Shown one piece after another: positions 15,001 through 18,000 of a stretch of DNA of 64,000 nucleotides. Numbering within the stretch: the first letter of the stretch is position 1; the number at the start of each line of letters is the position of its first letter. This DNA is from an uncultured Planctomycetota bacterium. Its GTDB lineage: Bacteria > Planctomycetota > Phycisphaerae > Tepidisphaerales > Tepidisphaeraceae. The position numbers are program-made. Location: NCBI GenBank assembly GCA_963841915.1, contig CAWJEN010000006.1:1600001-1664000 (forward strand), read 5' to 3'.

Positions 15001-18000
15001 ACACGCTGGCCGGTGTAGTGCGGGCGCACGTCGAGGCCGAACGCCAGGAGATTCGCCAGGTCGTCGGTAGCCGCGTCGAGCTGTCGGACGGTCGTGGCAT
15101 TTATGTCTGGCCGACGAACCTCGCCGCGTACGGCAGGCTCGCCACACTGCTGACCGTCGGCAAGATGCGGGCCAGCAAGGGCGAGTGCTTGCTTGGCCTG
15201 TGGGACTTGCTGGAGTACGCCGAGGGTCAGATGCTCGGCATCGAGGTGCCGACCGTCATCGACAATGGTTTTGTCGCGATGCTCCGCACGCTGCAGGATT
15301 GGTGCGGCGGGACGAACGCGTTGTCGCTGCTGGCTGCGCGCGACTACGGGCCTGATGACGAACAACGGCTGCGCAACATCGCGCGATTGTCGGCAGAAGA
15401 GCACGTGCCGATGCTGGCGACGAATCGGCCGCTTTATCACGTGCGAGGCAGGCGGTTGATGCAGGACGTCGTCTCGTGCATCCGTCGTGGTTGCACGCTC
15501 GACGAAGCAGGCCTGGCCCTCGAAGCGTCGGCCGAGCGGCACATGAAGGTGCCCGAAGAGATGGACCGGCTGTTCTCGCGTTACCCGAACGCGATCGCCC
15601 GCACGATTGAGGTTGCGTCGCGTTGCCGCGAGTTTTCACTGAACCAGCTCAAGTATCAGTACCCCGACGAGGTTGTGCCCGACGGCTCGACGGCAATGGA
15701 GCACCTCGAACAGCTCTCGCGGGCCGGGCTGCAAGGGCGTTTCCCCGACGGCGTGCCGGAGAAGGTGCGCACGCAGTTCGAGCACGAGTTGGTGCTCATC
15801 GGGGAGTTGAAGTTGCCGCACTATTTCCTGACGGTCGAAGACCTTGTGCGGTGGAGTCGCCAGCAGGGCATCTTGTGTCAAGGCCGCGGCGCGGCGGCGA
15901 ACAGCGTCGTCTGCTACTCGCTGGGCGTGACCGACGCCGACCCGACGCGGATCAACACGCTCTTCGAACGGTTCATCAGCCGCGCCCGCAACGAGCCGCC
16001 GGACATCGATGTCGACTTCGAACACGAACGACGCGAAGAGGCGATTCAGTACCTTTACCGCAAGTACGGCCGTGACCGGGCGGCGATGACGGCCAACGTC
16101 ATCACCTACCGCGGCAGAAGCGCCGTCCGCGAGGTTGGCAAAGTCCTCGGCTTCGGCGCCGACACCATCGACCGCCTCGCCAAAGGTATCAACTGGTGGA
16201 AAGGCGGCCCGGTCGAAGAAGACGAACTCGCCGCCCAGAAGCTCGACCACGCCGACGTTGCTACCGGGCACCTCGTCTACCTCTCGCAGGCCATCCAGGG
16301 ATTTCCCCGACACCTCAGCCAACACCCTGGCGGCTTCGTGCTGACACAAACGCCGCTGCATCAGCTCGTGCCAATCGAGAACTGCGCGATGGAAGCCCGC
16401 ACCGCCATCGAGTGGGATAAAGACGACATCGACGCCCTTGGCTTCATCAAAGTCGACGTGCTGGGGCTTGGCATGCTGACGTGTATGGCCAAGGGGTTTG
16501 AGCTATTAAAAGGCACAAAGGCACAAAGGCACGAAGGCACGAAGGGCTTGACTTCGGACACTCATGAGCGAGATCAAGACATATCGAGATCTGGTGGCGT
16601 GGCAGAGAGCTATGCAGTTGTGTCAGGCGCTTTATTGACAGACGAAGGCAATGCCGGCCGAAGAGCGTTTTGGGCTGACGAATCAGATGAGGCGTGCGGC
16701 CGTATTGATTCCGTCGAACATCGCAGAAGGATTCGGCAGGCAGAGCCGCGCCGACCACTTGAAGTTCCTGAAGATCGCACGCGGATCGTTGATGGAGCTT
16801 CAGACGCAGTACGAACTGGCGTGGTCGATGGAGATGATCCCCCGGAACGAGGAGCTGCATACATTGCTGATCGAGAGCGACCGCATTCTGCAGGGTCTCA
16901 TTCGCAGCCTGATGCGTTAGCTCCGGCATCTGCCCCTTCGTGCCCTCGTGCCTTTGTGCCTTCGTGCCTAGCCGAGGTGCTTCAGCCGCCGGACGATCCT
17001 GTGGTCTTCGACATGATTTGTCGGGCCGACACGATGGGGACGTTTCAGATCGAAAGCCGGGCGCAGATGACGATGTTGCCGAGGTTGCGGCCGCGGTGCT
17101 TTTATGACCTGGTGGTCGAGGTTGCCATCGTGCGGCCCGGGCCGATTCAGGGTGGCATGGTCCACCCCTATCTCAAGCGGCGCAGCGGCGAAGAGCCGGT
17201 GCCGGACTTTTCTGACGGGCCGCTCGGGTGGATTCTGGCCAAGACGTTCGGCGTGCCGATTTTCCAGGAGCAGGCGATGCTGATGGCCGTCCACTGCGCG
17301 GGCTTTTCACCCGACGAGGCCGACGGCCTCAGGCGTGCGGTCACCGGCTTCCGCCGCTTCGGCGACATCGACGACTACGAGTCGAAGATTGTCGAGGGCA
17401 TGGTAGAGAACGGCTACGAGCGTGACTTTGCCGAGCGGTGCTTCAAGCAAATTCAGGGGTTTTCAACCTACGGATTTCCGGAGAGCCACGCTGCCAGCTT
17501 CGCGCTGATCGCGTACGCGAGCAACTACTTCAAGTGCCACTGGCCGGGCGTCTTTCTGGCGGCCATTCTCAACAGTCAGCCGATGGGCTTTTATAAACCG
17601 GCCCAACTCGTGCAGTGCGCCCAACGGCACGGCGTGACCGTGCTGCCGGTCGACGTGATGCACAGTGACTGGGATTGCACGCTGCCACCGACGCAGGATC
17701 ACATGACGGTCCGGCTCGGGATGAGATGCGTCAAAGGAATGAGGCAGGACGACGCCCAGCGCATCATCGCCGCACGCGGCAAGGGCGTTGTCAGCATCGA
17801 GCAACTTTGGCACCAAAGCCGCTGCTCGGCGAGGGCGATGAAGTGTCTGGCCAAAGCCGACGCCTTCGGCTCGCTCAACGGCGGCCTCGATCGACAGTCG
17901 GCGCTGTGGCACGTGGGTAAACTCCGTGACGACGACACGCCGTTGTTCGATCACGTGCACGAGCCCGAGCCCGTCGTCGCGCTGCCGACGCTCGCGCCGC

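Follow-up and report, generated by a model that had tools for sequence, protein, structure and literature searches.

The closest described counterparts of the element analyzed here are the ORF-bearing IVSs of 23S rRNA, in which a PF05635 protein is encoded between complementary ends and which are excised by RNase III (PMC4990558). The PF05635 ORF has also been reported to be scattered among CPR rRNA insertions (bioRxiv 2024.02.27.582315), and the family is described as resembling Avd (PMC10053308). Within protein genes, gene-less REPs and RPEs are known from loops of DnaE2 and further DNA-repair proteins, where they lie in frame (PMC3733652). Heptamer arrays of Xanthomonas and Nostoc have been described as paired four-unit arrays without a gene (PMC4692102), and the main text of that report makes no mention of a helix-bundle gene. 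In the main texts covered by our literature search, mostly of freely accessible papers, we found neither an ORF-bearing cassette nested in dnaE2 nor PF05635 genes with tandem arms.

Here we analyze such a cassette in an uncultured Planctomycetota bacterium (genome G000). It lies in the window, that is, the whole stretch of 64,000 nt that was analyzed, and was followed through related genomes and protein libraries.

Results

A Gene-Bearing Cassette Within dnaE2

A preliminary description of the window had reported a PF05635 gene between inverted arms inside dnaE2, in another frame than that of its host and without closing the latter. Both points were reproduced, and the features are collected in Table 1. 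The dnaE2 frame is without a stop codon over its entire length and matches PRK05672 above the cut-off. Its catalytic motifs are intact (D-I-D at 16002-16010 and K-V-D at 16449-16457), its flanks of the cassette are under purifying selection, with a pN of 0.12-0.16 and a pS of 0.51-0.81 relative to congener-type alleles, and an ImuB-like gene, the partner expected of a DnaE2, is found in the same genome (C5:267986-269692).

The nested ORF had been given as the only PF05635 copy of the genome, with an E-value of 6e-32; the profile search returned a single match in the genome, at 5.9e-32. The part of the ORF 3′ of the internal TGA matches TIGR02436 (E 5e-26), and these matches, over the cut-offs, assign the ORF to PF05635/TIGR02436. 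The arms, described as four tandem units each, consist of approximately four 8-nt units of the type GGCAC(A/G)AA (tandem arrays by TRF), are 94% complementary and are spaced 387 nt apart. When region 16490-16990 was folded as RNA, the arms base-paired with a z of -4.9, and equal stability was reached in 0 of 100 shuffles. An Rfam scan gave three matches, all at chance level and none near the gathering score, and a scan for promoters and terminators gave no signal exceeding chance.

Table 1. Features of the cassette and its host gene, in positions of the window.
Feature	Coordinates	Strand	Remarks
dnaE2, error-prone DNA polymerase III alpha (host gene)	14571..18416	+	1281 aa as longest open frame, 1257 aa in the database gene call
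Left arm, about four 8-nt units	16511..16546	+	36 nt, T-free
Nested four-helix-bundle gene (PF05635/TIGR02436)	16564..16920	+	118 codons, +1 frame relative to dnaE2
Internal TGA, codon 25 of nested gene	16636..16638	+	recent nonsense mutation or error in the sequence
Right arm, reverse complement of left arm	16934..16969	+	36 nt, A-free
Whole cassette in dnaE2	16511..16969	+	459 nt = 153 DnaE2 codons; predicted disordered loop, last palm helix to fingers

The reported size of 460 bp agrees with the 459 nt between the outer arm ends, whereas the net gain over congener alleles, reported as about 150 residues, is 438 nt (146 aa) because the cassette replaces about 12 native codons. For the same reason, although the insert is absent from congeners as had been claimed, their allele does not represent an exact empty site or a clean state before insertion.

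The internal TGA, also noted previously, leaves the DnaE2 frame open. TGA is the commonest stop of this genome, ending 491 of 877 long open frames, and recoding of the TGA in the nested gene was therefore ruled out. Misassembly of the cassette was ruled out as well, as dozens of independent assemblies have an identical layout. We regard the inner gene of this genome as probably a fresh pseudogene, within a dnaE2 that would still be functional.

The run of genes that follows directly 3′ of dnaE2 (18362-23703) resembles a defense or signaling cluster and comprises a gene with TrkA-N/RyR domains, an unknown gene and one for a patatin-like phospholipase. Elsewhere in the genome, G000:C6:292204-292632 holds a second IMS-family (DinB-like) gene, which contains an internal TGA.

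Protein Fold and Location of the Insert in the Polymerase

The model of an intact relative of the nested protein (the G018 copy; pLDDT 93.7) is a four-helix fold with a TM of 0.87 to Xcc0516 (2GSC), and the same model gives a TM of 0.78 to bAvd (0.75-0.79 over PDB 4DWL and 8UB7) at 9-13% identity. The inner proteins are basic, with a median pI of 9.8. The insertion site maps onto residues 640-649 of Taq DnaE, in the loop after the last palm helix. Residues 289-436 of the DnaE2 segment are coil with pLDDT <50 in its AlphaFold model, from which little else can be read because the mean pLDDT is just 57, and no Pfam or NCBIfam match was obtained in the host-frame peptide. The cassette sits in a tolerant surface loop of DnaE2. 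This polymerase is dispensable and damage-induced, hence a cheap place to sit.

Distribution of Cassettes in the dnaE2 Loop and in Other Hosts

We refer to this dnaE2 loop, which connects the last palm helix to the fingers, as site A. In the family sample, 141 genomes were searched and dnaE2 matches were obtained in 104. Among the 78 alleles examined, which were picked by rank, so that the shares are not prevalences, 19 carry a gene-bearing cassette in the loop and 59 do not; gene-less inserts of >40 nt (various palindromes and tandem arms) occupy it in 26, and in 33 the loop is short. The inner-protein profile (E < 1e-53) matched 21 genomes of the family, namely the 19 filled ones and two with copies outside dnaE2. 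Further copies came from the best 80 of 578 GTDB loci, and 13 duplicates were dropped from the pooled 144 loci. After this deduplication there are at least 40 distinct sense copies at site A, together with one inverted copy, two in other dnaE2 loops, two in DnaE1 (one of which occupies the loop equivalent to site A), three at one amidohydrolase loop and two in DNA methyltransferases. The named records of the cassette clade are mostly from Phycisphaerae (Planctomycetota). The family had been proposed to behave as a small mobile unit, and this gained support from the loop being filled in 19 family genomes and 40 distinct alleles with the inner gene nearly always intact.

A single-sequence homologue search yielded 2 proteins only, and profiles were used for the larger sets. 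When 8000 candidates, retrieved with search words mainly from dnaE2 copies, were scored with a profile of the host-frame peptide without the DnaE flank, 89 proteins matched: 87 DnaE, one ImuA-like protein and one kinase. All but one of the DnaE matches (86 of 87) map to this loop, and in 4 cases the same gene holds a second cassette at another position. The insert is also present in P0065, named Phycisphaerae bacterium RAS1. In a 50%-identity protein library, 659 proteins pass E 0.001; the best 150 of these include 65 new matches of at least 430 aa, comprising 31 DNA methyltransferase/restriction proteins, 6 DnaE, 5 histidine kinases, 1 amidohydrolase, 4 others and 18 without a match.

Several other occupancies were observed. 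One loop of a large amidohydrolase is a second recurrent host site, with the cassette in frame in three genomes (L144, L165, L166), and in several genomes (L181, L182, L186) a sub-clade of free cassettes occupies the junction preceding a biotin-carboxylase-like gene (so named by eye), another long-held site. Unrelated gene-less palindromes, some of them one within another, lie in frame at the dnaE2 loop in L068, L075, L087, L097, L100 and L016. Two dnaE2 copies are present in each of G150, G004, G112 and G146; those of G150, one filled and one empty, provide a setting where conversion could happen.

Arm Types and Related Repeats

Inverted arms had been reported to beat all shuffles at 24 of 30 PF05635 loci, and our repetition, with 30 shuffles each, gave a similar result (22 of 30); one of the 8 missed loci lies at a contig edge. 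The 7-nt-unit arms reported for congener copies were recognized by eye, as heptamers, in the one copy that was re-examined (G003, L215). The arms had further been called locus-specific, which holds only in part: five unit types recur in the clade and track the protein subtype. The unit type is common to left and right arms at 53 of 55 loci, and arms of one type group together on the protein tree, where 14 changes are needed compared with 31 for shuffled types. This co-variation, as mapped on the tree, shows co-inheritance of arms and protein and is not proof of binding.

Units of the arm type or related to it were also seen apart from the gene. The window contains a solo intergenic array of six 8-nt units of the arm type (48012-48058), with neither partner arm nor gene, and a 16-unit array of such 8-nt units is located upstream of a ParA-like gene (G000:C6:380152-380282). 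Gene-less inverted arm pairs with the related unit GCGAAGRG were found at G000:C6:231046-231197, 570315-570423 and 330870-330990, one of them with a nested heptamer array. Outside the window, the minus strand of G000:C3:46124-50221 has a frame of 1365 aa that resembles valyl-tRNA synthetase, judging from motifs by eye. A Y1_Tnp (RAYT-like) domain is inserted in it in frame and enclosed by palindromic repeats, and other loops of this frame hold gene-less copies of the same palindromic repeat.

Selection on Both Reading Frames

A stop in the host frame arises where an inner codon ending in T precedes a codon starting with AA, AG or GA. In 47 nested copies such a third-position T was found at 0 of 869 positions, where 151 were expected from the same codon families elsewhere, as opposed to 49 of 344 (expected 66) in 18 free copies of the clade; a first pass had given 0 of 356 vs. 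116 of 652. The count of 0 of 869 should be read with the knowledge that the sites are not independent, since the sequences are related, that 19 alleles were found first with a host-frame query, and that for 3 amidohydrolase hosts the open frame itself decided the classification. Among 95 loci fetched by inner-gene profile or handle, the -1 frame is stop-free at all 36 that are dnaE-flanked. The arms, T-free on the left and A-free on the right in the window, leave no stop codon possible, and a stop triplet occurs in only 1 of 36 site-A arm pairs vs. 33 of 71 free pairs (crude unit caller). In the family sample, an in-frame length was found for 36 of 38 complete dnaE2 inserts >40 nt (13 of 14 with a gene and 23 of 24 without). 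The filled allele of G196 is out of frame, and that of L164 contains an N run.

The inner gene has pN/pS values of 0.30/0.72 in nested and 0.31/0.72 in free copies, and an internal stop is present in 1 of 47 nested inner genes, that of the window. Since the inner frame is equally conserved in both settings, the host-frame peptide would be a spacer, selected only to stay open. The lack of host-frame stops, together with the purifying selection on the inner gene, argues that both frames are read. Both frames are under selection, the inner gene for its protein and the host frame solely against stops. An inverted reading of the cassette would also be stop-free in the window's copy; selection for invertibility was considered and is unsupported, as 17 of 47 nested copies have an open antisense frame and so do 5 of 18 free ones.

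Exchange, Inversion, and Loss of Cassettes

Filled alleles are dispersed over the DnaE2 tree, often adjoining empty ones. In the genus of the window, the filled alleles of G000, G150a and G112a are interleaved with empty alleles at supports of 24-60. As filled alleles are found among and beside empty ones, the empty congeners are no sign of a recent insertion, which adjusts the reading of the preliminary description.

We compared the histories of cassettes and host in AU tests of 14 alleles with both flanks. With the cassette, the flank clade G034+G163+G181+G184 (support 100) is rejected at p 4e-4 for DNA and 9e-10 for protein; with the flanks, the cassette pair G034+G174 (support 96-99) is rejected at p 0.008. 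The best upstream and downstream trees also moderately reject each other (p 0.005 and 0.002), for which reason the whole-tree AU values overstate the conflict. A positive correlation nevertheless links the distances in flanks and cassettes (Mantel rho 0.28, p 0.01, compared with 0.58 between upstream and downstream), so that much of the inheritance would be vertical. The alignment is short (120 columns), and many forks of the tree are unsupported. A single origin of the site-A copies, which had received 100/98 against 30 distant copies, dissolved once closer free copies were added, and the site-A copies as a single clade were rejected (p 0.019).

The alleles L159 and L173 illustrate the discordance at one locus. 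Their flanks are 97% aa identical and differ at 68 of 258 four-fold sites, while their cassettes are 64% aa identical, differ at 26 of 40 four-fold sites and have different arm types, and the breaks coincide with the edges of the arms. The search for a donor was unsuccessful for both cassettes, the nearest ones being 64-65% identical, and because of this the difference may reflect fast local evolution instead of a swap. Other rearrangements were seen as well: L196 and L207 are two free copies on one contig with 98.6% identity over 511 nt and unrelated flanks, the interior of L145 is inverted between unchanged arms, and in G204 a left-arm stump is fused to the right junction, constituting a cassette remnant. 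By eye, no target duplication was seen at the junctions of 33 filled alleles, which vary, and no transposase was found in the cassette, whose sole ORF is PF05635. As we read the trees and breakpoints, they show that cassettes were swapped between dnaE2 alleles and reached other loops and genes, rarely.

Discussion

The reading that we favor, and consider more likely than not, is that of a selfish cassette of gene and arms, similar to an IVS and adapted to protein genes, which is spread at its arms by host functions with the protein as a helper. DnaE2 would be translated straight through the cassette, giving an active polymerase with a disordered loop of about 150 residues, while the small protein would be initiated internally on the dnaE2 mRNA. 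Spread would involve DNA, through infrequent recombination or conversion events that host enzymes carry out at the hairpin arms, with ORF-less arm pairs and already filled loops as landing pads; recombination from arm to arm would cause inversion, and microhomology deletion would cause loss. The basic, Avd-like oligomer may bind its own arms as a helper and not as a transposase; this and the route of spread are the least certain parts. Entry into genes would be open only to cassettes already free of host-frame stops, and one clade would therefore supply the DnaE2, DnaE1, ImuA-like and amidohydrolase hosts. We favor a DNA route because there is no transposase, target duplication or, in this genome, reverse transcriptase, because gene-less arms are present in this loop and at other places of the genome, and because breakpoints fall at the arms. 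A bolder version is possible but doubtful: the cassettes would constitute a mobile class that overprints protein genes without transposase, integrase or homing nuclease, its own protein recognizing the arm type and driving movement. Free of stops and Avd-like, they would home to, and be exchanged within, a single loop of the mutator polymerase, and would be both a counterpart of IVSs in coding sequence and a source of unexplained 7-8-nt inverted repeats in bacteria.

One alternative dispenses with continuing mobility. A single ancient insertion in dnaE2, followed by vertical descent, many losses and fast evolution inside the hairpin after mobility had ended, would account for the correlated flank and cassette distances, for the grouping of G000, G150a and G112a in both trees, for the arm remnant in G204, and for the lack of any near-identical cassette in distant alleles (at most 80% aa among 31). 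We nevertheless think it unlikely, given the constraint AU tests with their rejection of a single site-A clade, the presence of the same clade in other loops, in DnaE1, ImuA-like and amidohydrolase hosts and between genes, the recent copy on the contig of L196 and L207, and the genes with two cassettes. If cassettes do move, they might instead do so via RNA, the Avd-like protein chaperoning the cassette RNA, closed as a hairpin, to a reverse transcriptase that works in trans and would also regenerate the tandem arms. The fold match to bAvd, the reported requirement of DGR retrohoming for Avd (PMC10053308), and arms that close an RNA stem and are homogenised between left and right are all consistent with this route; yet a PF00078 match is absent from this genome (94% complete), neither template nor variable repeat was seen, identity to bAvd is at most 13%, and the interior inversion is more simply explained by DNA recombination. 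This route is improbable in our view.

The same stem also bears on what happens to the transcript. Its 36 bp, and the RNase III excision of the Coxiella IVS with its protein of the same family (PMC4990558), would suit removal or skipping of the cassette in RNA, whether by RNase III cutting as in rRNA IVSs and rejoining or by ribosome hopping, or else an RNase III site that damps dnaE2 mRNA. Cutting out or skipping at the RNA level is disfavored because stops would then not be purged, and the absence of stops at all 869 positions and the in-frame length of 36 of 38 inserts are left unexplained; it is the least probable of the alternatives, although partial RNase III cleavage is possible as regulation beside read-through. 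Strong purifying selection on the inner gene could, finally, mean that the nested protein is a domesticated mutasome partner or regulator, kept through co-expression with DnaE2 after DNA damage. DNA-acting hosts are indeed common (DnaE2, DnaE1, ImuA-like, and methyltransferase/restriction proteins in 31 of 65 long representative matches), and REPs likewise favor dnaE2 and repair genes (PMC3733652). However, 59 of the 78 alleles examined lack the gene and in this genome it is probably dead, free copies are under the same selection, histidine kinases and amidohydrolases serve as hosts too, and unrelated ORF-less palindromes occupy the same loop. Domestication therefore seems quite improbable, and we return to the IVS-like selfish cassette.

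In bacteria, fully nested same-strand genes that selection maintains are rare, and gene callers miss them; here the arrangement is found in about 90 DnaE proteins. For PF05635, a large family without a function, a role at the heart of a mobile unit becomes testable, and the filled, swapped, inverted, doubled, gene-less and deleted states of site A form a natural series in which IVS-type spread can be tested. The DnaE loop tolerates inserts of 150 residues or larger, and such inserts in DnaE2 raise the question of a tuning of damage-induced mutation. If it is true that the small protein drives the movement, this would be a new class of mobile element.

Among known systems, the ORF-bearing 23S rRNA IVSs (Coxiella helix-45 with S23p, and Leptospira) share with the dnaE2 cassette the PF05635 protein, the stem-closing ends, a sporadic distribution and a comparable size, 428 nt in Coxiella against 459 nt here (PMC4990558). 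Like an rRNA IVS, the cassette replaces a small tolerant loop of an important molecule. Its complementary ends close a stem, but its host is dnaE2 and not 16S or 23S rRNA; it would be kept in the product as a translated loop, its arms are made of tandem 8-nt units, and, unlike the decaying rRNA IVS gene, its inner gene is under purifying selection, the window's copy excepted. With REPs and RPEs the cassette has in common palindromic repeats in frame in DnaE2 loops, ORF-less ones being found here in 26 of 78 alleles examined; those elements, however, are gene-less and of 20-82 residues as described, whereas the cassette carries a whole second gene in another frame (PMC3733652). Its arms are tandem arrays without a GTAG/CGTC tag, and the two Y1_Tnp matches of the genome are located elsewhere, which sets it apart from REPs and REPtrons. 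The layout of a small gene within its own repeats, with gene-less repeats dispersed, recalls the REPtrons and TIRtrons (RAYT) and SRM-ssnA-SRM (PMC3733652, PMC11893778), but RAYT and Ssn are nucleases of demonstrated chemistry (PMC11893778), unlike a four-helix bundle without known activity.

The bAvd of diversity-generating retroelements is likewise a basic protein with the same fold (PMC10053308; 4DWL, 8UB7), but the cassette is without reverse transcriptase, template or variable repeat, its protein is distant from bAvd in sequence, and PF00078 was not found in G000. The Xanthomonas and Nostoc heptamers resemble the arms in their preference for about four units and their frequent convergent pairing (PMC4692102), and differ from them in unit length, which is 8 nt in the dnaE2 cassette. 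The absence of a transposase, and of target duplication or fixed ends in the 33 filled alleles, separates the cassette from insertion sequences and MITEs; a host-frame peptide that lacks a Hint domain and is predicted to be coil, together with saturated third positions of the inner frame, separates it from inteins. The cassette thus works like an IVS in a protein gene while belonging to none of the IVS, IS, REP, DGR or intein classes, and the window adds a hot spot in dnaE2, a single site with evidence of cassettes being exchanged or inverted and of double occupancy.
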